NCBI GenBank assembly: GCA_963768305.1
Contig: CAVYHE010000003.1
Span: 276,253-340,252, forward strand
Length of the DNA stretch: 64,000 nucleotides
From: an uncultured bacterium
GTDB lineage: Bacteria; Margulisbacteria; WOR-1; CAVSGV01
Direction: 5' to 3'
Shown: one piece after another, positions 22,886-44,128 of the stretch
Numbering within the stretch: the first letter of the stretch is position 1
How the letters are laid out: the number at the start of each line of letters is the position of its first letter
Position numbers and translations under genes: made by a program
Notes under the pieces: model-generated
Database searches by the model: none
Told to the model about the DNA's origin: nothing
What the model saw: the letters and a program-made list of their open reading frames with translations, nothing else

Positions 22886-22895
22886 CTTTTTTTTC

Positions 22896-24200: not shown

Positions 24201-25125
24201 TGGGATTAAAGCCCCCTCCTCGAACTGTCAGCATCATTCTACAGAATACAATTCATGGGTGCAAGAAGCTGAATCTGGGCCGTTCAGGATGATCATCAGA
24301 TACTGTGAACTAACCTGGGAACTTCACAGTATCCCTTTATGCTCGACTGGAGCACACAGGCACGCACGCACGGGCGCAGGAGGCGCGGCCAGGCGCAAAC
24401 CAGATTAGATATTTTATTAATTAACACAAGACAGATACATTCAAACAGTTGATAGACAGATGTTGCTCTTTAGCGTGAGAGAATAGACAGAGGATCAATG
24501 ACGTTGGATACGAACACAAATGAGAGACAGAAGAACCTAACCCAATGAGTTGAAGACACGCTGGGAGCTTGAAGTTATTGCCGCTCAACTCCACCAAAGG
24601 AGCTTCTGGGATCCCCGAAAAGAAGACGCTACATTGCTGGCCTGCACGAATAACCATTCGGCTTGTGGCTCTTGCTGAATATGTTGATGACAGCTGCCGG
24701 CGCATAGAAAAAGAGCGACGGGTATTCGCAATCGTCATAGATAACCAAGCTGGTCGGACTGCTCTAACTGGTCGTTTCCAGAGAGGAATTAAGGCTTTGC
24801 TTGAACCTCCTCAAGTGATCGTTCGTTGTGTTCCTGTGTTGCCTTCTCCGTGGTCCCGCCAAAGGAGAATGACCTCTCCTTCGCTCTTCGAGCTACGAAG
24901 GGCTGGCAATTAAGGTGTGCTACGCACATTTGAAAGGGAAAGACCATAATTCCTGCTCCGCCTTCGGCGGTATTTAACTTCGTGTCTTGCCGCCCGCCAA
25001 TCCTTCGACAAGCTCAGGACAAGTGCCCGCCAAAAAAGAACCAAAGCTCCTGCTCCGACTTCGTCGGTATTTGACTTCGTGTTGTGCCGCCGCCCGCCAA
25101 ACCTCTCCCAAAATGATGGTGGGGG
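24201..25125 (+). repeat. attL plus ~925-bp P' arm (inverted copy at 40797-41715)
   Basis: Manual alignment: near-identical outer ~280 bp, more diverged centre. Confidence 0.95.
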
Positions 25126-25193
25126 AAAAACCTGGCACGTCATACTCAAAAAAAGTGGTGAAAAATGATACTAATTTAAGGCCGAAAAACCAC

Positions 25194-25254
25194 CGGTTAT
25201 TTCACAGTATCCTATCGGGTATTTCACAGTATCGAGCGGTTAGTTCACAGTAAG
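25194..25254 (+). promoter_or_regulatory. Three iteron-like direct repeats CGG(T/G)TA(T/G)TTCACAGTA
   Basis: TTCACAGTA at 25201, 25223, 25244 (22/21-bp spacing). Confidence 0.75.
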
Positions 25255-25291
25255 TTGACTTTGTTGGCCACCCAAGACCATAATTCCCCCC

Positions 25292-26764
25292 ATGGCTGAA
25301 GAGCTGGAATACTTAACTCTTAATGAGATAAAAGCTTTTCTTAACTCCATCGACGATATCCGCGACCGGGCGCTGATAACCCTATTTCTTAACACCGGCC
25401 TATTCCTGAACGAAATAACCTCGCTGAAAATTGATTCCGTCGACTGGAAGAATAAAATTCTGAATGTCCCCGGAAACCGTAAAAGGGCCATTCCTCTCAA
25501 CGACCAGGTTTTTGATGCGCTTGCCAAATGGTCGAAGGAGCGTCCCTCGGGCAATATCTCCGAGCTTTTTGTCACAACAAAAGGCGCGCTGAAAGATCTG
25601 ACCAGCCGCGGCGTAGATTATCTGATTAGAAAATACGCCGATCAAGCAGGCATCAAAAAAACGGGTCAATCCGCAGATACTTCGCAATACATTCGCAGTC
25701 CGGCTTTTCTCCGAAGAACCCTCCGTGGAAAAAGCTTCCGCCATTTTGGGCATATCCGATCTGGAATCGGTAAATCGCTATATAAGGGCCTCTAAATTGC
25801 CGCCGGCCAGGGTAGAGATAACTGAAAATCTTGAGCATATCGATACTCGCCATCCCCTTGTCAAAGCCGTTTCCAAAATGTTCCCGACAAAACCCAAAGC
25901 CGTTAAGCCGACGACCGAAATAAAAGGCCCAATAACTCCCAGCCCCGAAGAAGTGATCTTCGGAAGGGATAACATAATCGCCGACATAAAAGCCGATATC
26001 GCCAAAGGCCAGTCTGTTTTATTGACGGGTCCTCTGGGAATAGGCAAAACGCATTTATTGAAGCACATGTTAAAAGTGCTTGGTCCTAATACAATATATA
26101 TATCATCCCCAACCCCGCTTAAAACCGCCCTGATGCAAATACTCGTAAAACTTGATCCTGAATGGAATAAGACGCTGAATACAAGAGCTTCAACGAAAGA
26201 TATAACCGACTATATTGTGAAAGATAAAAGGGGAAAAGCCTCCCGTCCTGCTTATCGACAATTTAAATAATATCAAGATTTCTGATATTGATCCTGTTTT
26301 AAGCTTTTTGAATAACTTCCCCGTACTTGCCGCGGCTGATGAAACAAAGCCCAAGCTGAAGCAGATATGGTGGCAGCTCAAACAGGTCGCGCTTCCGCCG
26401 TTAAATGAAGATGCCTCAAAGGAACTTATCAAATATCTTACGCAGAACCTTACTATCAGCGATTATGAAATGCTTGAAACAAGGATATCTGACCCTTTCA
26501 AGCGGCCTTCCCATCGCGATCGTAGATATGGTCCGTCAAATAAGTCATATCCGGAAGATTTCAGTTGATGTTATTCGTGATGTTTATCACGAAGCCGGGA
26601 TTCAATATCGCGACTGGACGATGGTAATAATCTTCATTTACTGGATAGCCGTCATTTTCAGGTTCCTTGCGCTCGGCACGAAAAGCTATGAGGCGTATTT
26701 CCTTGCAGGTTTCGGCGTAACTTTATTGATGATATTAAAAAATGTTATGTCAATGTTGAGGTAA
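25292..26764 (+). CDS. Degenerate tyrosine-recombinase catalytic domain + P-loop ATPase + C-terminal TM fusion (~490 aa, 3 frameshifts)
   Basis: RDRALITLFLNTGLFLNEI, NPQILRNTFA, LGISDLESVNRY; Walker A GPLGIGKT; Walker B-like VLLIDN; two TM at the end; frames join at ~25655, ~26230, ~26487. Confidence 0.72.
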
Positions 26765-26815
26765 AGGAGGGAGTTAAAAGAATTTAAGGGCTCAAATAAT
26801 AAGAGGTGATAATAA

Positions 26816-27271
26816 ATGACAAGAAGAGAATTTATTGAAAAATGTTTTGGCAACAAACTTCAGGCAATCCCTTACAGTGAAGGCGACCATTTTAATGCTT
26901 TAGAGGAGGTCGAATCGCTACTTACTAAGCAAGGGCTTATTAATTTAGATGAGAATGATATTGAGCAAATAACCAGTACAAGCGACAAGTTAGTGGCGAT
27001 TTCTGCTGAGGCCCACGGAAAACATCGGTCGCACAGACTTGGTCACAAAATCCTTTCAAACATACCTGATTTCTTTTGGGATAAGAAACCCACAAATGCA
27101 TTATTTAATATCACGGGAAGTCCCGATATAACACTAAATGAGGTTAATGATGTTGCTGAACACATTTACGATTCAGTGAATCCCCACGCGAATATCATTT
27201 TTGGCGCGATTATCGATGAAAATAAAACCGATTACTTAAAAGCCACCGTGATATTCGGCGGCAAAAAATAG
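26816..27271 (+). CDS. Stand-alone FtsZ C-terminal domain protein
   Basis: GLINLDEND (T7-loop-like), LFNITGSPDITLNEV, ANIIFGAIIDE, ATVIFGG; no GGGTG GTPase motif. Confidence 0.8.
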   Translation: MTRREFIEKCFGNKLQAIPYSEGDHFNALEEVESLLTKQGLINLDENDIEQITSTSDKLVAISAEAHGKHRSHRLGHKILSNIPDFFWDKKPTNALFNITGSPDITLNEVNDVAEHIYDSVNPHANIIFGAIIDENKTDYLKATVIFGGKK

Positions 27272-27288
27272 AAATGTGAGGTTAAAAT

Positions 27289-27855
27289 ATGGAACCAATT
27301 TTTACTTTATCCTTTCCGGAATATAAGGTTGTTCTGAAGTTATTGGGGCTCTATAAGCCAAAATATGGCTATTCAATATTATTGCCGTTGAGCAGGCAGC
27401 AAAAAGGCTTCGATCTGCTAATTTACAATTTAAATAAACATAGATCTGCTTCAATCCAGGTAAAAGGCTCTCGCTCATATGACGGACATAAAAACGATCC
27501 GCATGATTATAATCTTTGGTTTAAGAGGTTTAAATATAAAGAGGGTATGGCCGATTTTTATATTCTGTTTAGTGTATATCCCCAATTGGCTTCTAATATA
27601 AAGCGTCTCGATCATTCAAGAAATACATCGCGTTACAGCTATTTATTCATGCTATTAAAAGATGTTGAGATGGAGAAGCTCTTGGTTAACCTTAAAACTA
27701 AAAAAGGGAAAAGGGATAACTCTTTTCAGTTCGGTTTTGACTCTTCTGGCAGAAATATATTTCTGACCAGAGGTATTGGTAGGCAGAAAGAGAAGCCCTA
27801 TAATAAATATCTGCTGGAGAACAGGGTCGATTTGATAAAGAAATTTCTGAAATAG
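27289..27855 (+). CDS. PD-(D/E)xK nuclease-fold protein
   Basis: QKGFDLL..SIQVKGSR. Confidence 0.65.
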   Translation: MEPIFTLSFPEYKVVLKLLGLYKPKYGYSILLPLSRQQKGFDLLIYNLNKHRSASIQVKGSRSYDGHKNDPHDYNLWFKRFKYKEGMADFYILFSVYPQLASNIKRLDHSRNTSRYSYLFMLLKDVEMEKLLVNLKTKKGKRDNSFQFGFDSSGRNIFLTRGIGRQKEKPYNKYLLENRVDLIKKFLK

Positions 27856-27862
27856 GTAAATT

Positions 27863-29199
27863 ATGCTCGCACCCACCCATAGCGTATTCGGCATCTTTTT
27901 AACGCTGATATTCCTGGCGGTGTTCGGGATTCAGTGGAGCCTGCATTGGACGATAATTCTTGTTGCCATTTTTGGCTCGATCGTTCCCGACATTGACCAT
28001 CCCCGTTCCGTCATAGGCAAGCTCTTCCCCTATATCTCCATCCCCTTAGAGCGCAGATACGGCCATAGAACGATAACCCATTCCTTCATCGGCTGGATAA
28101 TTTCAACTGTCATTTTTGCTTTTCTTGTCTTGCTTGTAGTTTTGATATTTAAATTTGTTTCGATTCTCGGACTTCCGTTTCGGGTTTTATCTTGGGCGGA
28201 GTCGAGGGCTTGGCTCCCCGCTGGATAGCCGCATTTTCAATATCTTATTTTTCCCACCTGCTTTTGGACATGTTCAACAAGCGCGGCAGCCAGATGTTCT
28301 GGCCTAACCTCAGTCGTGATGTTATCCCGAAAAATCCAAAATACCGCCCTGAATCGGGCTCAAGCGTTGAGCCTTTTATCTTCATTATTCTTTTCATATT
28401 GATGCTTTTTGCTTTCCCGATCTCCAAATACGGGATAGCAAGTTCGCTTCGCTGGCTTATGGCTACTCCCGGCTCCGCCATGCAAGAATTCCAGTCCCTC
28501 AAGACCCATTCCTATGTTGATTTCAACGGCTATTACACGGAAACAAAAGAGCCGCTTGAAGGGACCGCAGAAATACTTGATGTAGACAAAGGACGGCTGG
28601 TAGTACTTTATAAGACCAAGATTTACACGTTAAGTGACGCTCTAGCCGCCGATATAACCGCCTCCCATGTCCGGCTGAAAAGGACGGATATTCCAATTAA
28701 TATCACGCAGAAGATATTTAAGGATGAAAACCGCGATGAGTTGCTTGCTCAAATTCCTGCAGGCGCGCTTGTTTCGGGAACAGTTAAGCTCCCGGAAGGA
28801 ATGGAGCTTCAATTCCCCGCCTTCCCCGGCTCTTATAAGCCAATGGATCAGAAAAGCGGGAACCTGATCCTTTTATTCGCCTCAAAAGACCAAATTGAGA
28901 AGCTTGCCCTCACGGAAACCTTCGATCTGCTAAAAAGAAAGGACCAGGCCGACCTCGCCCAGCTGTACGCGCAGGCGGATAAGCTCAAAAGCCAGATATC
29001 GGAAGCGGAAACTGGCGGCGGACTAACTCCTTTGGGCCAGGAGCTTATGATGAACAAGGATGACATCCAAAAGCAAAAAGCCCAGCTTGCCGATTTGAAA
29101 GGCCAGCTTGATGAAATAAATGTTAAAATTGAAGAGCTTCAATTGAAGATAAAGGCCAGAAAGTTCGTTTTTTCAGGAGAGGTTTATTTAAGGCAATAA
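27863..29199 (+). CDS. YdjM-like metal-dependent membrane hydrolase with soluble coiled-coil extension (frameshift ~28190)
   Basis: THS, PDIDH, GHRTITHS, SHLLLD motifs. Confidence 0.75.
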
Positions 29200-29210
29200 G
29201 GAGGCCTGAT

Positions 29211-29742
29211 ATGAGAAAATTAGTCGTTTATCTTGTAATAATGAGTTTATTGTCCCCGCTTATCGGCTCTATTGCTTATGCTTTTGAGTATACCCTCGCC
29301 CCAAATGATACTCTTGAAGATCAAATTAATGCCAAAAGGACATGGATACAAAGCAAACTATCGCTCCGGATGGCACAATTTCGCTTCCCTTCCTCGGAAG
29401 GGTCCAGCCTCAGGGCAAAACGCTCAGTGAATTTCAAACCTATTTAACAACCGAACTTGCCAAATATGTGAACAAGCCTCAGCTTGTCGTTTATCTTAAC
29501 GCCAAGATCGATATATGTCGTTCAGCATAATCTCAAGACGAATCTTTCAGAGGTAAGGAAGCTAAATCCATTGACAGAAGCTAAAGCATTATGCTGGCGA
29601 GGATTACACAAAAGAGATCAAATATGGCGATGTTATAACCGTCGATGTCGGCATTCAGCCTGATTGGTGGGAAACTAACTGGTACAAGGTCATATCCGCA
29701 ACGGCTGTGCTCGTAGGAATAGATGCGGCATTAAAGAAATAG
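29211..29742 (+). CDS. Polysaccharide-export (Wza-like Poly_export) domain protein (frameshifted)
   Basis: Signal peptide, YTLAPNDTL, IAPDGTISLPFLGRV, KYVNKPQLVV, C-terminal amphipathic helix. Confidence 0.7.
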
Positions 29743-29756
29743 GAGGGAGGTGACAA

Positions 29757-30524
29757 ATGAGCCCTAAACAAAGACCTGTAAACTTCGGCTGGATTCCTGA
29801 TATCCCCGACCATCGCGATCATTTGTATGCCGCGCCTCTTGAATGGATCGCAAAACTTCCCGCAAAGGTAGACCTCCGTCTCCAATGCCCTGATGTATAC
29901 GATCAAGGCCAGTTAGGAAGCTGCACGGCGAACGCAATTGCCGGGGCAATGGAATTTGAGCAGATAAAGCAGAAAGAAAAATATTTCATGCCCTCTCGCC
30001 TGTTCATTTACTATAACGAGCGAGCGATGGAACATACCGTCGAGTCCGACAGCGGCGCGCAGATCCGCGATGGGATCAAAAGCGTCGGAAAGCAGGGTGA
30101 TTGTCCCGAAAAGCTATGGCCGTATGATATAGCGAAATTCTCCCAGAAGCCGCCGGCGCCGTGCTACAAGAACGCCGTCAAGCACAAGGCGGTCTTATAC
30201 CAGCGCGTAAGCCGTATTGCGAACCAGATGAAGGGATGTCTTGCGTCGGGATATCCGTTCGTGTTCGGATTTTCCGTATATGATAGCTTTATGAGCCCGG
30301 ATGTAGCCAAGACCGGGCATGCCAAGATGCCGGAGCCGAAGGATAAACTGGAAGGCGGTCATGCGGTAATGGCGGTCGGATATGATGATGAGAATCAATG
30401 GTTTATTGTCAGGAATTCGTGGGGAACGGGATGGGGAATGAAAGGATATTTTACCCTGCCTTATGCATATCTGGCAGAAGAAAATCTTTCGGATGATTTT
30501 TGGACAATACGAATAGTGGAATAG
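29757..30524 (+). CDS. C1 (papain-family) cysteine peptidase
   Basis: QGQLGSCTANA, GGHAV, RNSWG catalytic motifs. Confidence 0.92.
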   Translation: MSPKQRPVNFGWIPDIPDHRDHLYAAPLEWIAKLPAKVDLRLQCPDVYDQGQLGSCTANAIAGAMEFEQIKQKEKYFMPSRLFIYYNERAMEHTVESDSGAQIRDGIKSVGKQGDCPEKLWPYDIAKFSQKPPAPCYKNAVKHKAVLYQRVSRIANQMKGCLASGYPFVFGFSVYDSFMSPDVAKTGHAKMPEPKDKLEGGHAVMAVGYDDENQWFIVRNSWGTGWGMKGYFTLPYAYLAEENLSDDFWTIRIVE

Positions 30525-30638
30525 AGGGTTTGGGTAAGGGGGCTCAAAAGATCGTTCTTCCGGTAGTTCCTCGAACTTAATTGAAAGATTGATAAGAAGT
30601 ATATTAAGGTATATTATCGATAGAATAAATATTTTGTT

Positions 30639-31211
30639 ATGAGAAAGGCCAAAAGAATAAAAACCAATACCACAAGCTCAACCATACGAGAGAAGCTTCA
30701 AAGTCTTTCAGAAGACGATCTTAGGGTGTCCATAATCATTCCATTACTATATGCACTAGGATGCACCGAAGTAAGAGATAATTGTGGCCCTGATGAGAAA
30801 GGTAAAGATATTATTTATAGTACTCCTCACTTATTGGGAGCTAATATATATGGTGCGGTAATATTAAAAAATGATCGCAACCTCGGATTAGGTAAGATGG
30901 ACAATTTGCGTTCACAAGCTCTTCGTGCCTTGAATGCATTCGGAAATCCCAGAGATCCTCGTATTGAAACGAAAGTGCATGAATTAATTTTTGTTACCTC
31001 ATTTGACATTACAAGTGACGTTAGAGATTTCTTAGTGAAGAATTGTGGCAGTAATTTTCCAAATATGCATTTTGTTGACGGCGTCAGACTTGAGCTTTTA
31101 ATAAGAAAAATAATTGATTTGTTCAAGAAACTCACTGGCAGAACATATGTCTTCGATATTACCTCCTTTGCGGGAATGTGCGATAAAGTTAGGGAATGTA
31201 ATTCGGAATAA
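30639..31211 (+). CDS. Mrr-like restriction endonuclease-fold protein
   Basis: IIPLLYALG, GPDEKGKDII, FVDGVRL. Confidence 0.6.
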   Translation: MRKAKRIKTNTTSSTIREKLQSLSEDDLRVSIIIPLLYALGCTEVRDNCGPDEKGKDIIYSTPHLLGANIYGAVILKNDRNLGLGKMDNLRSQALRALNAFGNPRDPRIETKVHELIFVTSFDITSDVRDFLVKNCGSNFPNMHFVDGVRLELLIRKIIDLFKKLTGRTYVFDITSFAGMCDKVRECNSE

Positions 31212-31214
31212 AAT

Positions 31215-34200: not shown

Positions 34201-34844
34201 ACACATATTATCCAGGATTATATGATGATCTTGGACCTGATAAATATAACTCAGACATTTTCAAGAAGATTCTTACTGACACGATTAAATCCTTGATGAA
34301 GGATAATCCCAAAAATTGCTTTCGATTTGCCTCCACTTTTGAACACATGTTGCGTCATGATGTCGAAAGAAAAGCCGACGCCGAGCAATCTACAAAACTG
34401 GGACTGAAATATTTTAGACTTTTGATGGAGCCTTACTCTCATTCAATTTATAACATTATCTTTCAGGTTATTCAAGATAGGATGAAAAATCCGGATAAAT
34501 ATTTAGATGAATGGTTTTTATTGTTCATAGAATGCTTAAATCTCGAAAACAGATACTATGATAATGCGGTTAAAATGGGGAATCTTGAAAAGGTATTTTG
34601 GTTTCCTTCTTTCTATCATTCAGATATATTAGAATTAATCTATAAAGGAATGGGCCAAGATAAATTTATGAGGGCTGCAAAGATATTCTTTAATTTTCCA
34701 AAAGGAATGCAACTAGAAGAATCTTCAAAACTTGTTAATATAATTAAAGAATTATCAAAATCAGATAAAGAAGCGCAAAGGATCATTAAAACTCTAATCA
34801 AAAACAATCCTGGTAAATATTGGGATTTAAAAGAGAAGAAGTAA
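31215..34844 (+). CDS. 1209-aa protein: N-terminal PD-(D/E)xK (Cap4-like) nuclease + long helical region
   Basis: KGVFAQ..EPNTSEDFDL..VCETKY; low GC; no Walker A seen. Confidence 0.65.
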   Translation: MSKHGQNNQKGVFAQNWAALSLFLQFYKDPKFSYIQLEPNTSEDFDLVFNDGKKIVCETKYRIKKFNYADLKLLLSKILDRKSISEQDEILIVCRSVNETLASDVKNIRFFNRLEEKFLEKNFNKQMIGLIPRVSFWVINKSLHKDINLPLISQAINLWLPQQDLKKFTDHIMQDKIMRLSTQGRAYSRNDFNNEINNLNAYVLQSSDKFNKRLTRKEKQFKMLEDDVNRNKGIKWGTASSSAISAQWDLMSFVLTKLRKRNDLDLKKWDDLWQLKSAFQFIYTVFDIFKNNMGTEQNMTYILGYIQRDIKGIRGFYGHSDFFNHGVVELVTKIIDAPSGHKYLKEAFAIVKYLINFNKDEYFYLKDRDQDRGQWEKEEICKLITKIYKIAPPEIKESVFQLITSGFNLTEDEGEFSHYAPREAFEIIREWLNEDFVNRITPLVNIIVDQYKRFYKKFGKNIEFKGWELMGGGVGIWEGNYRVSDRHFIEYILSPAIRKYYESNKAAGWQLILDKFISKTAQVSSHQPDFLNRAVFDIVCERYAEGDENSNRQAFKILKEFILSPKGIPHKSELIYQNIDRPTMSDEKKWKLVKIMTDKYDIPANPFIEPIVAGLVKKGHPKAKQLLIGWFMNPKFYPRFPFDGRYISTIKGLIETNLDLSIDLFKIIMRSEYIKTAKSEHYDVYDVANILFEILKRDYVQGLSIIRMLESEKALSIDQQIIYTYSLCNYRGNEDSDDLNLLIKVYADIVDPFLTRMHDDINSINHVLTFDNSREALIQFASRLAAKGKIHEALRIVKVFLDDTDPYLPSNAPVGYKIEYNEHQRIERGEAPLTITSVRGWCAWTLMRCSVLSGREYIPMVIEFTKKLIEDNNYYVVHLACNALAHLARNRLTVLPKNSDIMFFNDDKRKALEMAKDVEKIAFSLLDRFVGWPTPVQKALIKDVIYVFDNITQLNESDATKLVTKLIGLPKEAVAESAPLLIFFAETRRDCYAKWNTYYPGLYDDLGPDKYNSDIFKKILTDTIKSLMKDNPKNCFRFASTFEHMLRHDVERKADAEQSTKLGLKYFRLLMEPYSHSIYNIIFQVIQDRMKNPDKYLDEWFLLFIECLNLENRYYDNAVKMGNLEKVFWFPSFYHSDILELIYKGMGQDKFMRAAKIFFNFPKGMQLEESSKLVNIIKELSKSDKEAQRIIKTLIKNNPGKYWDLKEKK

Positions 34845-34886
34845 CTACTTTTTTCGCTCCTAGTGCCTCAACCTTAACATGACAGT

Positions 34887-37800
34887 TTATTTCCTAAGAA
34901 AATCAATCTCATCGATCTCTTTCATGATTCTGTATGTTTCTGTCAGGGCAACAATCATTTTCTGATAATGTTCAATATCTTCATTTGATAGTTCCCGGCC
35001 TTTACGGTCCTTAAGCCATTTTTGTGCGGGCTGATAACCGCCGATGTAAAAGTTCCACGCAATTTCCGGCACTTTTCCAAAATATTGCTCTGCATTAATG
35101 TATATCTTGCCATCTTTATAGGTTACCTTTTCAACAGTATCTGAGCCGGAAGCGGGATATGTAGTAATATATTTATCCACTTTAGGAGATTCAAGCAGAT
35201 GTAGTTCCCGCAACTCTGTCCCAAGTTTTACTAACTTTTTGAATGTTTTTGTGTCTTTCGGATATGGCACACGAGGAAAATCTATTTTCAAGAATTCTTT
35301 ATACTTATTACGGTATCTAGGCGAATACAGAACAGCATAAATATAATCATAAATATCTTCCGGATTTGTTTGGCCGATTATACTTTCTATTTTAATGGTA
35401 ATTTCTTTGTTAAGGTTTGATACTCTTTCATCCCCTACAGGGTAAAGATAAAGTGGAAAAACATATGTTTGATCACTAGCAGCATGAATATCGGCAATAG
35501 ATTTAGAAACATATGCCCTATCAAAAGGTTGATTGGCCGGCATTGAACGCGAAGAGAGTAAGGTGATATTATCTCTGCCAACAACATTCACATTTGTTTT
35601 TTCTCTTGGATATGCAATAAAGCCTTTTGAATTTCCACTATATGCTGTGTACCGCACATCAAAAGGACGATAAAGTATTTGTTCAATACTATACTTCTTG
35701 CTCAAATCCTCTTTTGCCCATTCGACTTTCCAATCTCGCCCATCTTCTGGCAATTGGTATTTACTTCTTATTTCTAAATCAGACAATGTTTGGAAATCAT
35801 CAATTACTTTTTTAATGTCCTTTTTTGAAAATTGCACAGTAGTATCATCGCGTTTCGTTTGAATGCCAGAATTGTATTCGTGAAATATTTCAGTTAAAGA
35901 AACCCCGTTTTTATATTGCTCTTCTAGCCCAAAATCCTTAGGAACAAAGAAATAATAAGGATCGTTATATTCAATGTTTTTCCATTTCACCTTTTCTATT
36001 TCGGTTTCACTGAGTATTTCATATTTCGCTTCCCGGCTGCCATATAACTCTGAATGATAAACGACTCCTAGTCCCGTTTTATTTTCGCTTTTGCGGACAA
36101 ATATCGAAATAGCCACTCCTTGTTGTATATCAAATACATTTTTATCTTCTTTATTCAGCTCTTTCTTTCTTGAACTCCCATGAAGATCAAGCACATATAT
36201 CTTTTCAAAGGTTTCAAGCAAATGCTTCCTCATTTGGCGATGTGTAATACCATCCAAGAAAGAGTTATTAGTAATCATTGCAACAATGCCAGTTTTGTTT
36301 TTTTCAATAAAATGCTCTGCAAGTCGAATAAATTTAATATAATCATCATCCAAGTTTATCTTTTTTTCGCCAAGACCTTTTTTGTAATCATCTAGTTTAG
36401 ATAATATCCATGCCCCTTTATTCTTTGATTTTACATTGTAAGGTGGATTACCCATGACCACCATAATCGGAGTTTCATTTTTAATCATATTCTGCCTGCT
36501 TTGGCCTCTTCTGCAATGCTTTCTGCCAAACCAAAAGCAAATCATAGCTTGTTGGTTTGCGCCTTCCTCAAGTGAATTAGTTAAATAAATTCCAAGACGA
36601 TTATTAAACATTCTAAAATCCGATAATTTAAGTGCAATACTTAATTTAAGATGAGCGATAGTATATGGAGTCATCATTAATTCAAAGCCATGTAGACGCG
36701 GCAAAAGGTCATTATGTACATATGCTGGCCAGCTGCCCATCTTGGCCCTGTTCATTTGAGATATTCATATATGTTCCTGAATAGTTTCACTAATAAATGT
36801 CCCTGTGCCGACTGCCGGATCAAGAATTTGCACACGATGTTTCCCATTCGGTAGTTTTGATGCATCAGCAAGCCCATCTCGAAGCTGAAATCTTTTGCAA
36901 AATATGATCAACAGCATCGAACAATAAAATCGAACAACCGGCAATGGTGTATAAAACGCCCCCATTTTCTTATCGAAGTTCAGGATCATATTCTTTTAAA
37001 AAGTCCTCGTAAAAATGAATCACAGGATCTGGTGCATTCTTGTTTACCCACATAATCATCCCTATAAGTACTTCTATTAGTTATTTGAGTTTGCATGATG
37101 AAACAGATATCACAATTCATCAACGATAAACTTAAGCGCTTATCAAAATCGGCCCCGGCGATATGATCAAAAAAATGTCTTAAAAATGGGTTAGATGCGG
37201 GAATTAAATCTCTTGCGCTTCTGACGTGAAAAAGTATCAGGGGTTTCATCGTAATATCTTGCAACAAATAAGCCATAGACTAGAGTTTGGGCATACATAT
37301 CGGCAAAAGCATTCCTGAGTCAGTCGTGAACAAGAGCTTTTTTATCGTTTCATATACACGCAATATCTCTGTATTTTTTTTGAATCTAAATCTGAAGAAA
37401 GATAATGCCTAATATTGTCCCTTATTCTTTGAGCCTTACCTCCCATGATCTTTGCAAGGTGCTCACCTGACTTGATTGGCTCTTTTTGTGATTGTGTAAA
37501 GTCGATAAGGGTTTTCGCGACATGTTCATAATTTTCCGGTAAAGGTGCAATTGAACGTGTCTTAAGGTCATATTCTGCTATTTTTATTGGTTCTTCATAA
37601 CGTTCTCCATTCCTATAAAACCTGAAATTCAAGATAATCCGTAAGAACTAAATTCGTATAGCCATAATATCTTGCCATTTGCTCAGATTTTTCAACTTTA
37701 TCTAATGGAACACCAATATCTTTTGCTTCAATATAGAGAATAGGGACACTATTGTTGATTACGACAAAATCCGGTTTATTCCCTTCTGCTGCTCTTTCAT

Positions 37801-37957
37801 CGTGGCCTATGCGTTGAACCTTTATCGTCTCAAATATTCCGTTTAACAATATTTCAAAATCGGTACGGTAGCCCATCTCGCTTGTTTCTGTGTGGGTAAA
37901 TTTAGAGGCAACAGACTTTAGATATTTGGACATTAAATCTTTTGTATTTTCTGCCAT
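34887..37957 (-). CDS. Type IIG/ISP-like restriction-modification enzyme (N6 MTase + nuclease + TRD; several frameshifts)
   Basis: KPDF..YIEAKD, GAFYTP, ILDPAVGTGTF, GNPPY, GGYQPAQKWLKDRKGR. Confidence 0.85.
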
Positions 37958-38472
37958 TGCTTTGAATTATACGCCCATAAGAAAAGAGAGTAAAGATTAG
38001 AAGTTCTTGCTCCCAGCCTTTTCTGTTTTGAATTTTATCCGTCGCTTTCTGTTGAAAACCACAAAACAGTGTTAATGAAATCGACGGCATCTTCAAGCGA
38101 AAACCCCAATTCCATGAGGAATTCGATTTTTCCCATCATTGTTATCACCTTTGATTAGTATTATTTTGCTCCCCAGCCTTTCCAGTATAGCATTTTACCG
38201 CCTTTTCCCTGTAAAGAGCGCTCACGTTAGGACTTCGTATAAAGCTCTCTGTCCCGAAAAAATCCTCATCCTTGCGGATTTTTTCGGGGATTAGTTCGCG
38301 CTCTCCTCCAGTCGCCCGCCTCCGGCGAGGCTCCTTCCGGCCCTCCGCTCGTTGCGCTCTCTCGCCCATATATTAGCTTTAGGTAGGCTCAATCGCTCCA
38401 CTCGCTTCGGGTGACAGGGGCGGTAAAATGCTGTTCCTTCCTATGTTTTCATTTCATAGGGAGGTGGTTTTC

Positions 38473-39005
38473 ATGTCTCGTTTGGCAGGTGTCATTGGTT
38501 CTCGTTCATTGCCCGCTTCTTTTGCTCCGCTTGTTTCCCGCGTTGTTTCTCTTCTTCTTTCCCGTGGCTACAGCATTGCCTCCGGCGGCGCCGTGGGCGC
38601 TGATTCATTTGCTCTTGAGGCTGTCATTCAGCAGGGGGCGGCTTCACGCGGCATCATTCATTCAGCTTGGGCTTCTGCTTCTGGCTTTCCTAGCGTCCGT
38701 TCAGCCTCAGGTTTCTCGCTTTCATTGCTTCCGGCGGTCAGGTTGTTTGGGGCTCGGCTCAGCCGGGTCAGTCCCGTTCTGCTGTTGTTTCAGCTCTTCT
38801 CGGCAGGAACAGGCGGCTTGTTTCTGCTTCCTCGGTTGTTGTTGCTTTCCTTCACGGCCAGTCTCGCGGCTCTCTTTACACAGTCCGTCAGGCCATTGAG
38901 CAGGGCGTTCCGGTCATTGTGTTCCTTTGCGGCGGCGGGGCGTCTTTGCCGGCTGATTTGGCTTCCAGGTGTTTAGTATTTACGGAAAAGGAGGTGTTAT
39001 TATGA
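38473..39005 (+). CDS. DprA/SLOG family protein (frameshifts ~38690-38725)
   Basis: GVIGSRS, SGGAVGAD, then LLGRNRRLVSAS..SRGSLYTVRQA..GVPVIVF; GGAGG RBS; ATGA overlap with next gene. Confidence 0.78.
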
Positions 39006-39169
39006 GAATTTGCAGAGTGTGCGGTTCATTCCTCGTTCCTTGCAACGAAGGAATAGATCATATCGTCTTCTATCATCCTATCCTTCATAGGCATGTTTAT
39101 ATCTGTCAGACCTGTCTTACAGAGATTCAGAATATCCTCGAGTACGGCTTCCTCGCTCCCTGCGCTTAA
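39002..39169 (+). CDS. Small zinc-finger protein
   Basis: AGGAGG RBS; CRVC..CQTC. Confidence 0.6.
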   Translation: MRICRVCGSFLVPCNEGIDHIVFYHPILHRHVYICQTCLTEIQNILEYGFLAPCA

Positions 39170-39170
39170 C

Positions 39171-39210
39171 CCAAAAGGCCTGATTCATCAAGAAACAGGC
39201 CTCTTTTTGG
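39171..39210 (+). terminator. Rho-independent terminator
   Basis: AGGCCTG..CAGGCCT followed by CTTTTT. Confidence 0.6.
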
Positions 39211-39296
39211 TCGCTACTCAGATTTGTTCTCACATATTACCAAATACATATTTTGTTATATAAAACCGTCATAATTTAAGATAATATTAGTGTACT

Positions 39297-40052
39297 ATGA
39301 AATATGTTTATTTTGACGATAGCATTCATGATAGAGGCGGATTTATTATTGGGGCATTTGTCTCTTTAACAAAAGACCCAGATACTGATCTATCAAATAT
39401 ATTAATCAATAATGGATTTGATCCCAACAATGATGAGTTTAAAAGTAGCACGCATTTTAAAGAATGTCCGAAAATGATTGATGTAAGAGATCAGCTGAAA
39501 TCATATGTTAGAAATAATTGTGGAATAAGTATCATTGTGCTGCCCAGAAAAAATAGAGATAAATTAGGAGCTGAGACTATTAATGCCTTTCATAAAATGG
39601 TTCAATTCAATACAATAAACGATCCGATGAGCATATATTTTGACGAAGGGATATTCAAAAACATTAAAGATGGGCAGAAAATAGCCTCTCAATATTCTTT
39701 TGATAGATGCAACTTTAATTTTAAAACGAGCTCTGTAACATGCAAAGGGATACAGCTTGCCGATTTAGTTGCACATACTTGTTCGGTAATGTTATTAGAT
39801 CAAATGGGCTTGATTAACAAAACAATAAAAGCAGGAGATAATTCTGGATATGCTCCTGACACGGATATTGAATTGGGTTTTGAATTGTGGGCCTCTATAA
39901 GAGGGAATTTCTTTTGCAAGCAGAAAGCCGTTTCGTCTCCTTATTATATAGTTGAGCCATATGGATTATATATTTCTCACTTATGTAGCAACTCCTTATC
40001 AATTAAAGCTCGAGAACGCTTTGGTGAAACATATCGCGGCTGTATTCACTAA
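39297..40052 (+). CDS. DUF3800-like (RNase H fold) protein
   Basis: YVYFDDS, IYFDE, GIQLADLVA. Confidence 0.75.
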   Translation: MKYVYFDDSIHDRGGFIIGAFVSLTKDPDTDLSNILINNGFDPNNDEFKSSTHFKECPKMIDVRDQLKSYVRNNCGISIIVLPRKNRDKLGAETINAFHKMVQFNTINDPMSIYFDEGIFKNIKDGQKIASQYSFDRCNFNFKTSSVTCKGIQLADLVAHTCSVMLLDQMGLINKTIKAGDNSGYAPDTDIELGFELWASIRGNFFCKQKAVSSPYYIVEPYGLYISHLCSNSLSIKARERFGETYRGCIH

Positions 40053-40151
40053 CGCCTGCTTATTTGGATTGACTTGCAGTATCGTTTACCCTAATTCATA
40101 ATGCTGAAAATAAGATAAAGTCAAGGATAGAAAAGGGGTAATGAAAGGAAA

Positions 40152-40733
40152 ATGATGATGCTGGTTTTGATAAAATTAGCAATTTATTTGTTTTCGATAT
40201 TTGTATTTTTTAAAGTCTTATCTTTATATTATGAATATCGTTCAACAATAGTAACGGTTGCTAGCCATAACATTGGGGGGGGAGGCATAGGAACATTTTT
40301 AGGGGAATTAAAATGGAAGTTATTACGCTTTTGGGAAAAATTCAGAGTCTTTGTCCTCTTTATTCTTATTGCATATATTATTTTTGTGGCATTTGGGGAT
40401 TATTGGACACGGATAATTTCATTTGCATTTTCTGTATATACCTTTGTAATTAATAGGGATGCTTTTGATTTGTTAAGTTCTTATGGGTATGAAAAAAACA
40501 AAGATAAGTTAGCGATTGTTGAGAGATATTTATGGACACATTATAAAGATGGCTGTTTTGAGAATTATGATATGGATTTAAGGAAAAGAGTAAATGGGTT
40601 TGATATCTATATAAAGATAGGCAAATATGATGTTGCCACTGAAGAAGCTAAACATAATCTTGAAAAATATGTGAGGGAAGCTTGTGGAATAGTTGGCCTC
40701 AATCTAAAATCAGTTATTGTTAATATTCACTAA
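40152..40733 (+). CDS. Low-GC membrane hypothetical protein
   Basis: 193 aa, about three TM. Confidence 0.6.
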   Translation: MMMLVLIKLAIYLFSIFVFFKVLSLYYEYRSTIVTVASHNIGGGGIGTFLGELKWKLLRFWEKFRVFVLFILIAYIIFVAFGDYWTRIISFAFSVYTFVINRDAFDLLSSYGYEKNKDKLAIVERYLWTHYKDGCFENYDMDLRKRVNGFDIYIKIGKYDVATEEAKHNLEKYVREACGIVGLNLKSVIVNIH

Positions 40734-40796
40734 TGAATGCCTTTGTTACTGTCCAGATCCCATTTGTTTAGCCACTTTTTCAATACAAAATCCCCT

Positions 40797-41843
40797 CCCC
40801 CACCATCATTTTGGGAGAGGTTTGGCGGGCGGCGGCACAACACGAAGACAAATACCGCCGAAGGCGGAGCAGGAGCTTTGGTTCTTTTTTAGCGGGCTTT
40901 ACCCTGAACTTGTCGAAGGATTGGCGGGCGGCAAGACACGAAATTAAATACCGCCGAAGGCGGAGCAGGAATTATGGTCTTTCCCTTTCAAATGTGCGTA
41001 GCACACCTTGATTGCCAGCCCTTCATAGCTCGAAAAGCGAAGGAGAGGTCATTCTCCTTTGGCGAGATTACGGAGAAGGCAACACAGGAACACAACAAAC
41101 GATCACTTGAGGAGTTTCAAGCAAAGCCTTAATTCCTCTCTGGAAACAACCAATTAGAGCAGTCCGACTAGCTTGGTTATCTATGACAATTGCGAATACC
41201 CATCGCTCTTTTTCTTGCGCTGGCAATGGTCATCAACATATTGAGCAAGAGCCACAAGCTGAATGGTTATCATGCAGGTTAGAAATTAGCGTCTTCTTTT
41301 CAAGGATCTCAAGAGCTTCTTTGGTGAGTTGAGTGGTAATAGCTTCAAGCTCCCAGCGTATCTTCAACTCATTGGGTTAGGTTCCTCTGTCTCACATTTG
41401 TATTCATATCCAATGTCATTGATCCTTCGTCTTTCTTTCACGCTAAAGAGCAACATCTGTCTATCAACTGTTTGAATGTATCTGTCTTGTGTTAATTAAT
41501 AAAATATCTAATCTGGTTTGCGCCTGGCCGCGCCTGCTGCGCCCGTGCGTGCGTGCCTGTGTGCTCCAGTCGAGCATAAAGGGATACTGTGAAGTTCCCA
41601 GGTTAGTTCACAGTATCTGATGATCATCCTGAACGGCCCAGATTCAGCTTCTTGCACCCATGAATTGTATTCTGTAGAATGATGCTGACAGTTCGAGGAG
41701 GGGGCTTTAATCCCACATAATTATAGCTGCGAACCGCTGTGTTTTCTAAACCGGCGGTTTTTTCTTTGCGGGAAATAGCGCGGCGGGCGGCGTTTGCCGC
41801 TACCCAAACGCCGCCCGCCGAATGTTCGCCGCGTCGGGACACA
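40797..41843 (-). repeat. Internal inverted intact attP-like copy (P arm + TGG + P' arm, ~1047 bp)
   Basis: Reverse complement matches 43972-44100 + TGG + 24204-25125. Confidence 0.92.
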
Positions 41844-42385: not shown

Positions 42386-42386
42386 C

Positions 42387-42584
42387 TTATTTCACAAGTT
42401 TATCAATTGATACATTAAGAGCTTTAGCGATCTTATGAAGGGTGTTGATCCCAATATCCTTATATTTGCGATAAAGGATTTTTTGAAGCGTATATTGTGA
42501 TATTAAGGCTTTTTGGGCAAGTTTCGCGATAGATACTTTCCGGTATTTATTAATGTTTCTTGCAATATTCTCAATCAAGCTCAC
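42387..42584 (-). CDS. XRE/Cro HTH regulator
   Basis: SIAKLAQKALISQYTLQKIL..TLHKIAKALNVSIDKLV; GTG 7 nt after a TATAAT; divergent from integrase. Confidence 0.82.
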   Translation of the reverse strand: MSLIENIARNINKYRKVSIAKLAQKALISQYTLQKILYRKYKDIGINTLHKIAKALNVSIDKLVK

Positions 42585-42612
42585 AAATGAAATTATATCA
42601 CCCACTTGAAGC

Positions 42613-42641
42613 TTGACAATGTAGCCGTATAGGACTATATT
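42613..42641 (+). promoter_or_regulatory. Sigma70 promoter of serine recombinase
   Basis: TTGACA-17-TATATT, then AGGAGG RBS before ATG 42668. Confidence 0.75.
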
Positions 42642-42667
42642 CCTCGCATAAAAGGAGGTAATAACCA

Positions 42668-44128
42668 ATGAATAAAATGAAAATTGGCATCTATACCCGC
42701 GTTTCCACCGATGGACAGGCCGAAGTGGAGTTCAACTCCTGCGAGGCTCAGGAAGCCAAGATAAAAGCCTTTATCTCCAGCCAGGACAATATGGAGATAT
42801 ATAAAACATATTCTGACCAGGGTTACAGCGGAGCCGACACTAATCGCCCCGCCCTTATGGATTTGCTAACGGATATTCGGCAAGGCAGCATAAACTCTGT
42901 TATTGCTTATAAGATCGACCGGCTTACAAGGTCGCCGAAGGATTTCTATCAGCTTATCGAAGTATTCGAACAGCATGATGTCAGCTTCATATCGGTAACT
43001 GAGAGGTTCGATACCTCTACGCCGTCAGGTCGTCTCCTCAGAAATATAATGCTTACTTTCGCGCAGTTCGAGCGCGAGCTTATAAGCGAAAGGATAAGGG
43101 ATAAAATGCTCGAACGCGCGAAAAAAGGGCTCTGGAATTCTGGTATTACCCCGCTCGGCTATGGCAGAGAAAATAAGAAACTGATCATCAACGCCAATGA
43201 AACTAAGATAGTAAAAACCATCTATGATACCTATTCTAAAACCGGATCGATGGCTGCTGTATACCATAAGCTAAAAGACCAGGGAATTAGGGGAAGGAAC
43301 GGCAAGATTTTTCCAAATGTAACATTATCCACAATTTTGAGAAATAGGCTTTATACCGGCAAGATAACTCATCGCGGCCAAACATATCAGGGCATCCATG
43401 AACCGATCATTTCAGAAGAGCTTTTCAGCAAAGTTCAATTGCTTCACAAGGAAAAGGTTAAAAAGGCGAAGGTTTACAACTATTCCCTTTTCACCGGGCT
43501 TGTGAACTGTAAAGAATGCGGTTCAAAAATGACTTTTGTTTTCACTAACAAAAGCAGGAAGCAGCCCGGTCCCAAACTGAGGTATTATTATTATCGCTGT
43601 ACCAGCATTTCAAAAAGGGATTTTTCTGTTTGTTCCACCAGACAGGTGAGCATGGATCGGCTTGACGATTTTGTCATAGAAAATCTCTCAAGGATCGCCG
43701 CCGATCCTAATTATGTCGACAGTTTGATTTTCAGGAACAACCACCCGGTTAATGGTCCCCGGAGCGGGATCGAAATGAAGGGGTCAACATCTCCGATGTC
43801 GCCGGAAATAGTCAAAGAAACTCTCAATAAGGTGATCGAAGCCGCTAAAATAAAAGACCTTTCGGAGAGAAAAAATATCATCAGGAAATATGTTAACGGC
43901 ATAAATTATTCAAAAGAAAATATTGAAGTAGTAATGAATTATTATGATAAGGACAGCGAAAATATGGAGGTTGTGTCCCGACGCGGCGAACATTCGGCGG
44001 GCGGCGTTTGGGTAGCGGCAAACGCCGCCCGCCGCGCTATTTCCCGCAAAGAAAAAACCGCCGGTTTAGAAAACACAGCGGTTCGCAGCTATAAATTATG
44101 TGGAGCCGGAGCGGGATCGAACCGCTGA
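42668..44128 (+). CDS. Large serine recombinase (integrase)
   Basis: IYTRVST catalytic Ser, DRLTRS, FAQFERELISER, recombinase domain, zinc ribbon CKECG..YYRC; reads through attR. Confidence 0.95.
   Translation: MNKMKIGIYTRVSTDGQAEVEFNSCEAQEAKIKAFISSQDNMEIYKTYSDQGYSGADTNRPALMDLLTDIRQGSINSVIAYKIDRLTRSPKDFYQLIEVFEQHDVSFISVTERFDTSTPSGRLLRNIMLTFAQFERELISERIRDKMLERAKKGLWNSGITPLGYGRENKKLIINANETKIVKTIYDTYSKTGSMAAVYHKLKDQGIRGRNGKIFPNVTLSTILRNRLYTGKITHRGQTYQGIHEPIISEELFSKVQLLHKEKVKKAKVYNYSLFTGLVNCKECGSKMTFVFTNKSRKQPGPKLRYYYYRCTSISKRDFSVCSTRQVSMDRLDDFVIENLSRIAADPNYVDSLIFRNNHPVNGPRSGIEMKGSTSPMSPEIVKETLNKVIEAAKIKDLSERKNIIRKYVNGINYSKENIEVVMNYYDKDSENMEVVSRRGEHSAGGVWVAANAARRAISRKEKTAGLENTAVRSYKLCGAGAGSNR
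43972..44103 (+). repeat. P arm + attR core (inverted copy at 41713-41843)
   Basis: 129 vs 128 bp, identical except one indel; contains a 16-bp perfect GC hairpin at 43995-44034. Confidence 0.93.

Follow-up and report, generated by a model that had tools for sequence, protein, structure and literature searches.

The textbook serine integrase works in one direction and with one attP. Such enzymes are main tools for inserting large DNA, and the elements that depend on them are described with a single attP. Prophages and islands of the phiC31, Bxb1, A118/LI and SPbeta SprA types encode large serine recombinases (LSRs) with resolvase, recombinase and zinc-ribbon domains, and recombine over a very short core common to the element and host sites. 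Parallels in geometry come from other systems. The yeast 2-micron plasmid is a ring in which two inverted repeats lie between two unique segments, and it has its own site-specific recombinase, a tyrosine recombinase of the FLP type that inverts the segment between the repeats, besides its own origin and its own replication or partition functions. In the Hin/Gin segments the gene for a serine recombinase of about 190 aa sits inside inverted repeats bearing its sites, and natural segments are found in either orientation; these invertases have a C-terminal HTH and act on 26-bp sites with an enhancer. The dif-like sites of CTXphi lie close together, pair in the single-stranded phage genome and serve the host XerCD tyrosine recombinases, which exchange one pair of strands. 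The attachment region of this mobile element is described, in the part of the account drawn on here, as two inverted copies of the site (PMC3442271). An inverted attP pair also serves phiC31 cassette exchange in the MiMIC landing sites, according to excerpts of two sources (PMC4379497; bioRxiv 10.1101/2020.08.13.249656).

The window (the whole stretch of 64,000 nt analysed here, from an uncultured bacterium of the Margulisiibacteriota) contains a mobile island of 19.9 kb (24201-44103), integrated at the 3' end of a tRNA-Arg(TCG) gene (Table 1). The island shares with known LSR elements the domain set of the recombinase, the very short core and attL/attR hybrids that follow the expected logic. 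It differs in that a second complete attP is kept inverted inside, throughout the clade, in that at least 11 different tRNAs are targeted within the clade, at their extreme 3' ends, and in that the LSR frame crosses the crossover point. The predicted ring has the geometry of the 2-micron plasmid, but the recombinase is a serine integrase, for which the known rules forbid attP x attP recombination. Unlike Hin/Gin, the enzyme is a 486-aa integrase type, and the repeats are the attP halves of a mobile island, one of which abuts the host target. Whereas the CTXphi copies lie close together, those of the island are separated by 2.1 kb and 15.7 kb, and its serine recombinase cuts both strands. MiMIC likewise places two inverted attP sites for one serine integrase around a DNA segment, but it is man-made and its donor carries two attB sites, whereas the natural islands meet a single attB. 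A search of the full-text literature found no description of such spare-inverted-attP islands, and the family is apparently undescribed. We consider it probable that this is an LSR-integrated island of a family that keeps its S-core-L unit twice, in inverted orientation, with either copy usable.

Table 1. Features of the island and its flanks (positions in the window)
Feature	Position	Strand	Basis
Left flank H, between iPGM gene and island	22425..24200	.	composition and ORFs
Core TGG of attL (H/TGG/L)	24201..24203	.	junction reading
Long arm L, outer copy	24204..25126	+	inverted-repeat blocks; apparently non-coding
Promoter-like box in L, facing core and out of island (TTGCAC, 17 nt, TAGAAT)	24236..24264	-	alignment
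Cargo segment, 15.7 kb	25127..40795	.	ORF list, family searches
Tyrosine-recombinase-like domain, P-loop ATPase and C-terminal hydrophobic stretch	25292..26764	+	family search, relatives ~489 aa
YdjM-like membrane protein, here two ORFs (437-461 aa in relatives)	27863..29199	+	family search
Type ISP restriction-modification enzyme gene, here four ORFs (1028 aa in G004b)	34887..37957	-	family search
DprA-like gene, 182 aa	38428..38976	+	family search
Long arm L, internal inverted copy	40796..41712	-	inverted-repeat blocks
Same promoter-like box, internal copy	41652-41680	+	alignment
Core of internal unrecombined attP (CCA on plus strand)	41713..41715	.	junction reading
Short arm S, internal inverted copy	41716..41843	-	inverted-repeat block
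ORF, 171 aa	41870..42385	-	ORF list, family search
Cro/C1-type HTH regulator	42387..42668	-	family search
Overlapping divergent promoter-like pair, HTH gene and LSR gene	42592..42641	.	promoter scan, 11/12 matches each
Large serine recombinase (LSR), 486 aa	42668..44128	+	Pfam domains, phrog_95
Short arm S, outer copy, attR side	43972..44100	+	inverted-repeat block; junction reading
13-bp hairpin and U-run in S, terminator-like	44046..44084	-	RNA folding, z = -4.1 and -3.3
Core TGG of attR (S/TGG/tRNA)	44101..44103	.	junction reading
tRNA-Arg(TCG), integration target, crossover at 3' end	44100-44174 (Rfam 44101-44174)	-	tRNA prediction and Rfam

Inverted-repeat comparison yields eight collinear inverted blocks across the island. 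The long arm at 24201-25126 pairs with 40796-41715 in blocks of 99, 90, 85, 85, 95 and 96% identity (94% overall, with a middle stretch of 85-90%), and the short arm at 43972-44094 pairs with 41721-41843 over 123 nt at 100%; per 20-nt bin, the internal and outer S copies are 95-100% identical out to 120 nt. The core TGG is common to 24201-24203, 44101-44103 and, as CCA, 41713-41715. From these shared junctions and the block pairing it follows that the internal unit, 40796-41843, is exactly the reverse complement of S-TGG-L. One attP copy has been used and is now split as attL (H/L, the last bases of flank H being the host half) and attR (S/tRNA), and the other is whole inside the island. Chance does not remotely account for a repeat of 1 kb with 94-100% identity, and the 1.05-kb unit was found at only these three places in the whole 1.53-Mb assembly. 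The earlier note had placed attL, attR and a complete inverted attP within a serine-integrase element; all are present, at coordinates that were correct to 1-3 bases, and the layout recurs with independent cores in relatives. Its description of the second attP as intact holds for the whole S-TGG-L unit, with the caveat of a 1-nt difference 7 nt from the core, where the attR copy reads TATAAATTATG before TGG and the internal copy, one A shorter, reads TATAATTATG. This difference, if real, could affect binding. A terminal-inverted-repeat or composite transposon was rejected: the island ORFs include no transposase, and the junctions share a crossover core with the internal site rather than a target duplication.

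The two copies divide the element in two: S'-regulator-LSR-S, here called module X, and L-cargo-L', the cargo segment. The LSR of module X contains Pfam domains PF00239 Resolvase (residues 8-155, E = 2.2e-38), PF07508 Recombinase (residues 177-261, E = 2.1e-18) and PF13408 Zn_ribbon_recom (residues 274-340, E = 1e-12), and matches the phrog_95 integrase family at E = 5.9e-113; its N-terminus reads YTRVSTDGQ, a motif that we take to hold the catalytic Ser. A Hin/Gin-type invertase was rejected on the length of the protein and its integrase-type extra domains, and the phrog_125 'DNA invertase' profile (254 positions) matches residues 2-258 only, far more weakly than the integrase profile. The LSR frame passes through S and the core to a stop 25 nt inside the antisense tRNA, the outer S encoding residues ~435 to 478. 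To judge from the sequence, the LSR looks intact and both attP-derived units look whole. The HTH regulator probably has its true start downstream of the promoter pair. No recombination directionality factor, which serine integrases need for excision, was identified in the island; candidates are the DprA-like protein, the 171-aa ORF (without a family match, and not conserved, no homologue having been found in related islands) and, in small islands, ORFs of 63-74 aa.

Both arms carry signals that bear on transcription at the target. The outer copy of L holds 96-nt-spaced repeats with small G+C hairpins, and its small ORFs show more conservation at the DNA level than in their translations. At the position of the promoter-like box in L, a TAnAAT-type box is kept in 12 of the 14 aligned islands; the consensus promoter scan did not list it in this island, where it has 8/12 matches. 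The hairpin in S, which folding of the S arm of this island predicts and the terminator scan did not list, is oriented against transcripts entering from the core side, i.e. tRNA read-through, and in the internal copy it faces the L promoter-like box. S would thus end transcripts running off the tRNA and the outward L box would restart transcription of the downstream sequence, so that the arms would repair the unit that integration interrupts. From these signals, the arms appear to be designed so that the tRNA transcription unit still functions after its interruption.

A single copy throughout the relatives, which would have spoken against the reading in the earlier note, was not seen: they consistently have two. 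On the sequences compared, the layout is standard for a whole family of islands: it occurs in ~31 related islands, among them three loci of a one-contig relative (G004) and two of G012, a genome titled 'curated_complete', and 13 islands (this one and 12 others) are complete with both S and L repeats. The H/L, inverted S/L and S/T junctions share CTGGG in G004a, and three junctions share TAGC in G004b, TG in G016a/G012a and GGCTCC in L056; in L049/L053, where only the S/T and S/L junctions were read, these share TGGCTC. Core length in the family is 2-6 nt, core and target both being particular to each island (the targets are the 3' ends of eleven different tRNAs, or a protein gene), and the second attP measures 0.25-1.4 kb across the clade. 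The S repeat flanks the LSR at 10 of 17 metagenome loci, the remaining 7 being cut by a contig end; loci L049 and L053 combined also show it. When the flanks of class-genome loci were extended, it was present at the LSR in 15 of 22, with three lacking it and four unjudgeable. The loci without an S repeat are G015:C4 (IS-disrupted), G023:C10 and L129 (40%-identity LSR), and none was found at the 12 loci with LSR identity <=39% and adequate flanks. Unoccupied targets were seen for tRNA-Arg in G004 and for tRNA-Glu(TTC) in the genome of this island itself.

The element occurs in both orientations at its target. In 29 islands it is the 3' end of the LSR that lies against the target, and in 3 it is the regulator or DprA-like side (L048, L049/L053 and L152), in counts of islands that are not independent (7 of the 29, for example, are at tRNA-Asn). 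The LSR of L048 is the nearest relative found of the LSR of this island (77%). The four longest cargo ORFs of L152 all run towards its LSR, which matches the ring deduced from normal-orientation small islands and implies a turn of the entire element and not of X alone. In all five of the large complete islands the LSR faces the target and the tyrosine-recombinase-like gene faces the outer L. The suggestion in the earlier note of integration via either site, or of flip-flop, thus gains comparative support from three related islands reversed at their tRNA. The two orientations fit use of either attP copy, or flipping, and the 29:3 bias argues against free, equal use of both sites.

Within an island the two S copies match closely, at 95-100% identity across their first 100 nt in 22 of the 25 islands, whereas the LSRs of different islands are only ~52-77% identical; in three islands the S copies have drifted to 40-90%. 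Islands with drifted copies or with no S repeat indicate that an island can persist without a perfect spare site. Since the whole clade keeps a near-identical second attP, some process must maintain the design, maybe orientation-independent integration, a flip switch or a folded intermediate. Gene conversion between the inverted repeats would keep the copies identical, and inverted repeats, unlike direct ones, can recombine without deletion. In the favoured reading, attL x attR excision would yield a ring with two inverted attP sites; these being practically identical, either could recombine with attB, which would permit entry in either orientation. With its sites defined, the design is directly testable now. 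Amplification in the manner of the 2-micron plasmid, which the earlier note had entertained, has no support: no replication origin was found, and no replication-related family appeared among the ORFs of this island or in six small islands that were scanned. Catalytic residues are, besides, missing from the tyrosine-recombinase-like protein. In all 8 homologues it has Phe for the first catalytic Arg and the His residues are missing; the gene, here broken into three pieces by three 1-nt insertions, is absent from small islands that share the repeat layout.

The internal attP may instead never integrate, X and, independently, the cargo flipping between the inverted repeats, either through homologous recombination or because the LSR carries out an unusual reaction of the attP x attR type; the spare copy would then be kept for the effect of the flip, e.g. 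on LSR expression versus tRNA read-through, or be merely harmless. We think this unlikely, if worth serious consideration. Near-identical S copies (22/25 islands) are expected with frequent recombination, a flipped X is locally indistinguishable from integration via the other site, and one relative (G011) keeps an S/S' hairpin stub where X has been lost, which shows that the S repeats do interact. In L152, however, the cargo is also turned, so that two independent flips are needed, and frequent flipping would make the 29:3 bias unexpected. To our knowledge, moreover, canonical LSRs recombine attP neither with attR nor with attP.

That the spare attP serves a new route of transfer or establishment via a single-stranded or otherwise folded intermediate, or else that this clade does carry out attP x attP recombination, is improbable when the two are taken jointly. 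If the folded route is true, the copies pair and restore attP and the promoter as duplexes, the adenine-poor DprA-like gene and the LSR are expressed, and integration precedes ordinary replication; if attP x attP recombination is true, the island is a self-flipping switch.

The structure can also be read formally as two adjacent units with terminal inverted repeats, each moving alone through a palindromic ring junction (S-core-S' or L'-core-L); S'-X-S would be a recombinase cassette that is autonomous, and L-cargo-L' a cargo cassette that is not. L-bounded cargo without an LSR occurs in G001 and G011, and a GGTTYG-like motif lies ~20-23 nt from the core in both the S and L half-sites, so that the LSR may bind either. 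We nevertheless hold this to be very improbable: no solitary S'-X-S unit was found, the L arm lies opposite S across the core in 14 of 14 aligned islands, and the S/S' stub of G011 points to deletion of X from a normal island. Lone excision would, in addition, need a palindromic central dinucleotide, which TGG cannot supply.

Slimmer still are the chances of a single-stranded stage, in which the inverted copies pair as a stem. Such a stem would restore attP and the promoter in double-stranded form, and both the DprA-like protein and the LSR could then be made before a second strand exists. A DprA-like homologue is present in all related islands examined, and in the small islands the gene follows immediately downstream of L'-core-S' and runs in the direction of the promoter-like box; its coding strand here is only 8.9% A, and its leader pairs over ~230 nt when folded as single-stranded DNA. 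Passage through a stem could also explain the near-perfect repeat identity, and precedents, as far as the excerpted sources describe them, exist in the folded attP of CTXphi (PMC3442271) and in Frpo, a single-strand promoter of plasmid F (PMC9849209). Against this, recombination of a hairpin stem with attB by an enzyme that cuts both strands would break the chromosome instead of inserting the island. Among the ORFs searched there was no relaxase, rolling-circle or packaging gene. In this island, moreover, a terminator separates the box from X, and X does not include the DprA-like gene.

The layout is not an assembly artefact: merging of circular and integrated forms, or of two strains, could be suspected in a source assembly that is 86% complete in 16 contigs and has several frameshifted genes, but this explanation is close to refuted by L copies that differ at ~6% of positions in a mosaic pattern, by the absence of the unit elsewhere in the assembly, and by recurrence of the layout, each time with its own sequences, in the ~31 islands, one-contig and curated-complete genomes included.

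As a clade with a second, inverted, near-identical attP, the family offers dozens of naturally diverged LSR/attP/attB sets whose sites can be read from three junctions, and whose targets are the ends of a wide variety of tRNA genes. In these small, uncultured Margulisiibacteriota genomes the islands are also the main carriers of the restriction and other defence genes observed. With several cargo genes broken, the copy described here may be decaying. Flank H, to its left, has a lower G+C (0.37) and contains an ORF6N-domain fragment and a 210-aa ORF; on these features it may be the leftover of an earlier insertion. In the relative G001, the PGK, tRNA-Arg and iPGM genes all lie inside ~1.5 kb.

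The 19.9-kb island at the 3' end of tRNA-Arg(TCG) (24201-44103) is bounded by a long (L) and a short (S) attachment arm, and also contains inverted copies of both (L' and S'). A repeat finder returned eight collinear inverted blocks in the window, in which 24201-25126 pairs with 40796-41715 (L and L'), and 43972-44094 pairs with 41721-41843 (S and S', 123 nt, 100% identity). The L copies are 99% identical in the core-proximal 283 nt, 85-90% in the next ~230 nt and 95-96% in the remainder. Near the core the units differ only by a single A, which the internal S copy lacks in an A-run 7 nt from TGG. Because the three junctions read alike around TGG, the internal unit is exactly S, core and L, the arrangement of an attP. 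The earlier note's claim of an attL and attR accompanied by a complete inverted internal attP is thus borne out, both by the inverted blocks and by TGG at all three junctions. The S-core-L unit is found at only three places in the whole assembly (1.53 Mb, 16 contigs). In an Rfam scan of 23500-45000 at E <= 1 the tRNA was the sole match, the L arm matching no known RNA family.

Junctions and principal features of the island in the window
Feature	Position	Strand	Reading or size	Basis
attL junction	24201-24203		host...GTAAAA|TGG|GATTAAAG...	sequence reading
Internal junction	41713-41715	minus	...ATTATG|TGG|GATTAAAG...	sequence reading
attR junction	44101-44103		...ATTATG|TGG|AGCCGG (tRNA)	sequence reading
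Divergent promoter-like pair	42592-42641		overlapping, strong	promoter scan
Large serine recombinase (LSR) ORF	42668-44128		486 aa	three large-serine-recombinase domains; PHROG integrase family, E = 5.9e-113
tRNA-Arg(TCG)	44100-44174	minus		tRNA call and Rfam

The recombinase module consists of S', a regulator, the LSR and S. The N-terminus of the LSR reads YTRVSTDGQ, and its frame crosses S and the core to end 25 nt within the antisense tRNA. The region upstream of the LSR holds, in divergent orientation, a gene for a Cro/C1-type HTH protein and an ORF of 171 aa that has no relatives.

Comparison of the 1.05-kb unit with related genomes, a check proposed in the earlier note, revealed that the dual-copy layout recurs, two copies being present in two islands of genome G004 (G004a and G004b) and in one island each of G012 and G016. 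When the unit was sought as DNA in 41 genomes, the window's own and 40 relatives, inverted pairs of it turned up in G004 (twice), G001 and G011. The G004 assembly is one 1.77-Mb contig, in which self-comparison gave L copies of 921 nt at 99.1% and S copies of 197 nt at 97.5% for G004a, adjoining tRNA-Gln(CTG), and L copies of 1292 nt and S copies of 153 nt, each at 100%, for G004b, adjoining tRNA-Glu(TTC). The core is common to the three junctions of an island and differs by island, being CTGGG in G004a and TAGC in G004b. The layout is also kept in one island each of G012 (one contig, titled 'curated_complete') and G016, where the LSR is only 34% identical and the target is a protein-coding gene. 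In large islands the gene order is likewise kept: L, a tyrosine-recombinase-like (YR-like)/ATPase gene, a small coiled-coil gene, a YdjM-like gene, a Poly_export gene, variable cargo (restriction-modification, GmrSD, a PD-(D/E)XK nuclease, two-component systems and a 3552-aa surface protein), a DprA-like gene, L', S', regulator, LSR, S and the target.

The layout was then counted at LSR loci. Of 17 metagenome loci whose LSR shares at least 40% identity with that of the window, 10 have an inverted repeat of the 3' end of the LSR gene on the far side of the module, and the remaining seven are cut on one side by a contig end; contigs very often end exactly at S, as a repeat makes them do in short-read assemblies. 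Two of the cut loci (L049 and L053) are 100% identical over their overlap and, when joined, contain the repeat. At 22 loci in genomes of the class the S repeat is present in 13 within +/-1.5 kb and in two more with longer flanks, absent in three and not scorable in four. The three exceptions are G015:C4, where the HTH gene has an IS as its neighbour, G023:C10, in which an L repeat of 67 nt persists, and L129, the LSR of which is 40% identical. As a control, 12 LSR loci from the same scan at <= 39% identity had adequate flanks, and an LSR-flanking repeat was found in none. In six small islands (5-9 kb) the L repeat was recovered by a short-word search, as inverted stretches of 37-62 nt at the far ends that copy the sequence to the left of S'. 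Their module comprises a DprA-like gene, a small ORF and the LSR, and their cargo, restriction-modification and other defence-type genes, is all directed away from the module. In total, the S repeat occurs in ~31 islands, and both repeats in 13 islands seen complete. The target is a protein gene or a tRNA gene (Arg, Gln, Glu, Met, Lys, Val, Ile, Ala, Leu, Tyr or Asn), the latter always at its 3' end. No island occupies tRNA-Arg(TCG) in G004, and in the genome of the window both tRNA-Glu(TTC) and tRNA-Gln(CTG) are likewise free; because neighbouring genes are rearranged between genomes, these loci are not base-for-base empty sites, and no exact attB was derived.

A complete second attP raises the matter of orientation, the earlier note having proposed flip-flop isomers and integration via either site. 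Both orientations do exist among relatives: the target adjoins the 3' end of the LSR in 29 islands and the opposite side of the module in three, a count that covers islands related to each other. The 29:3 bias shows unequal use of the two sites, or selection for one outcome. In the three reversed islands the LSR frame runs via S and core into L. They are L048, at tRNA-Ala, with the closest relative found of the window's LSR (77%), the joined L049/L053, at tRNA-Gln, with the core TGGCTC at both junctions read, and L152, in G037 at tRNA-Tyr. The four longest cargo ORFs of L152 converge on the LSR. This is the polarity predicted for the ring, the deduced excised circle, from small islands of normal orientation, where all cargo genes point off the module. 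If cargo polarity is conserved, the arrangement of this single island fits better with entry of the whole element via the other attP than with a flip of the module only.

The two S copies of 25 islands were aligned from the core outward and scored per 20 nt; identity across the first 100 nt is 95-100% in 22 islands, and in three (L114, L120 and L121) the copies have diverged to 40-90%. Arms from different islands can hardly be aligned, and the LSRs are ~52-77% identical. Since the S copies are near-identical within islands but the arms have diverged between them, the two copies evolve together, for which gene conversion between the inverted repeats would be the simplest cause.

Each arm contains features suggestive of a role in transcription. 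In the window, transcripts of S entering from the core side would form a 13-bp hairpin with a U-run behind it and, farther on, one of 16 bp (RNA folds, z = -4.1 and -3.3); the 13-bp hairpin was not among the calls of a simple terminator scan. At attR these hairpins face read-through from the tRNA gene, which has a promoter-like site at 44213-44184. The L arm has a block ~35-65 nt from the core whose conservation extends over genera and families. Of 14 aligned islands, 12 keep a TAnAAT-type box at this place, with a TTGCAC-like box before it and a GGTTYG motif after it, ~22 nt from the core; the promoter-like box is directed outward over the core. The window's version (TTGCAC, 17 nt, TAGAAT) has only 8/12 consensus matches and is therefore absent from the promoter-scan listing. 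In G028 a tRNA-Val gene, parted from tRNA-Met by the insertion, lies 4 nt downstream of the outer L, and an outward promoter in L would restore tRNA-Val expression. S could thus serve as a terminator and L as a promoter, together mending the interrupted transcription unit, and at the internal attP the two would merely face each other. The possibility that L mimics a tRNA 3' end, as an attB-like half-site, was set aside, the shared GTTCG-like motif lying 3-4 nt farther from the core in L than in tRNA; because of this difference in spacing L looks like an element-type half-site.

The cargo of the window's island (25127-40795) has a G+C content below that of the flanks. Its YR-like/ATPase gene is split into three pieces, its YdjM-like gene into two and its Type ISP restriction gene into four, and it also has a papain-like peptidase, an ORF of 1209 aa without a family, a DUF3800 gene and a DprA-like gene. 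The YR-like/ATPase family (window 25292-26764; alignment of eight homologues) comprises proteins of ~489 aa with an N-terminal YR-like domain, a P-loop ATPase and a hydrophobic C-terminus, and genes for the small coiled-coil, YdjM-like and Poly_export-domain proteins always come after it. It is present in 20 of 65 genomes of the class, and an all-species scan (11 strong hits among 18 loci) found it exclusively in records with Margulisiibacteriota, WOR-1, Saganbacteria or 'uncultured bacterium' in their titles. The idea that this protein acts on the L arms in the manner of FLP was discarded, given that in 8/8 homologues the first catalytic Arg is replaced by Phe and the conserved His residues are absent, and that small islands with the same repeats are without the gene.

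Set against intact homologues, each of the three breaks in the window's YR-like/ATPase gene is a 1-nt insertion, only one of them at a homopolymer, and may reflect decay or assembly error. An alternative genetic code (table 25) for the fragmented cargo genes was rejected: it yielded no real gene of greater length, and comparison with intact homologues traces the fragments to 1-nt insertions. A PGK ORF (45026-45991; 20865-22800 was also noted) begins at position 68 of 379 in the profile, the N-terminal part being absent or in another frame; indel errors in the assembly may underlie both this truncation and the broken island genes. A 151-aa ORF (26816-27271) matches only the C-terminal domain of FtsZ; since G004a has a homologue of similar size (147 aa), it is no fragment but one of the conserved small genes of these islands. 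The DprA-like gene (38428-38976) has 8.9% A on the coding strand versus 20-36% in the six neighbouring stretches measured, and its product is nearly devoid of Lys, Asn, Asp and Glu. In its leader (38180-38430), folded as single-stranded DNA, the start-codon region pairs with a stretch ~230 nt upstream (z = -4.8).

No replication, relaxase or packaging genes were found among the ORFs of the island, in the relatives' islands examined or in the six small islands, leaving the proposed amplification in the manner of the 2-micron plasmid without support. An LSR scan of viral contigs gave no locus with a relative, and thus nothing suggests a phage. A full-text literature search outside subscription journals and supplements, which covered serine integrases with a pair of attP sites or an internal or inverted one, islands at tRNA genes that have inverted repeats at their flanks, and elements of Margulisbacteria or Patescibacteria, retrieved no natural element of such design, and within the same literature 'inverted attP' referred to engineered Drosophila landing sites only. 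What is said here of the role of the spare attP we infer throughout from comparative anatomy.

Several loci depart from the standard layout. In G001 (L025/L026, C3 84771-105297), L-bounded cargo without an LSR is nested in an outer inverted repeat (~510 nt, 80%), which overlaps a PGAP1-like hydrolase gene in its 3' part. G011 has, between tRNA-Tyr and the L arm (L027, C6 16126-16190), a perfect hairpin of 17 bp, its loop 27 nt long, that looks like an S/S' remnant, as might be left after loss of the entire recombinase module. At L148 (G023:C10 126390-138749) a 735-nt direct repeat (93.5%) spans a tRNA 3' end, S and the 3' part of the LSR, its copies adjoining tRNA-Ile and, 11.6 kb away, tRNA-Ala; the arrangement suggests a tandem pair of islands, of which the second has shrunk to a piece of the LSR. 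Finally, the surroundings of tRNA-Glu(TTC) and tRNA-Gln(CTG) differ between the window's own genome (C8:221100-223200 and C6:17600-24500) and G004:C1, the tRNA genes being inverted relative to their neighbours. The gene-order breakpoints coincide with the island sites of G004, and islands whose arms are homologous may be drivers of chromosomal rearrangement.
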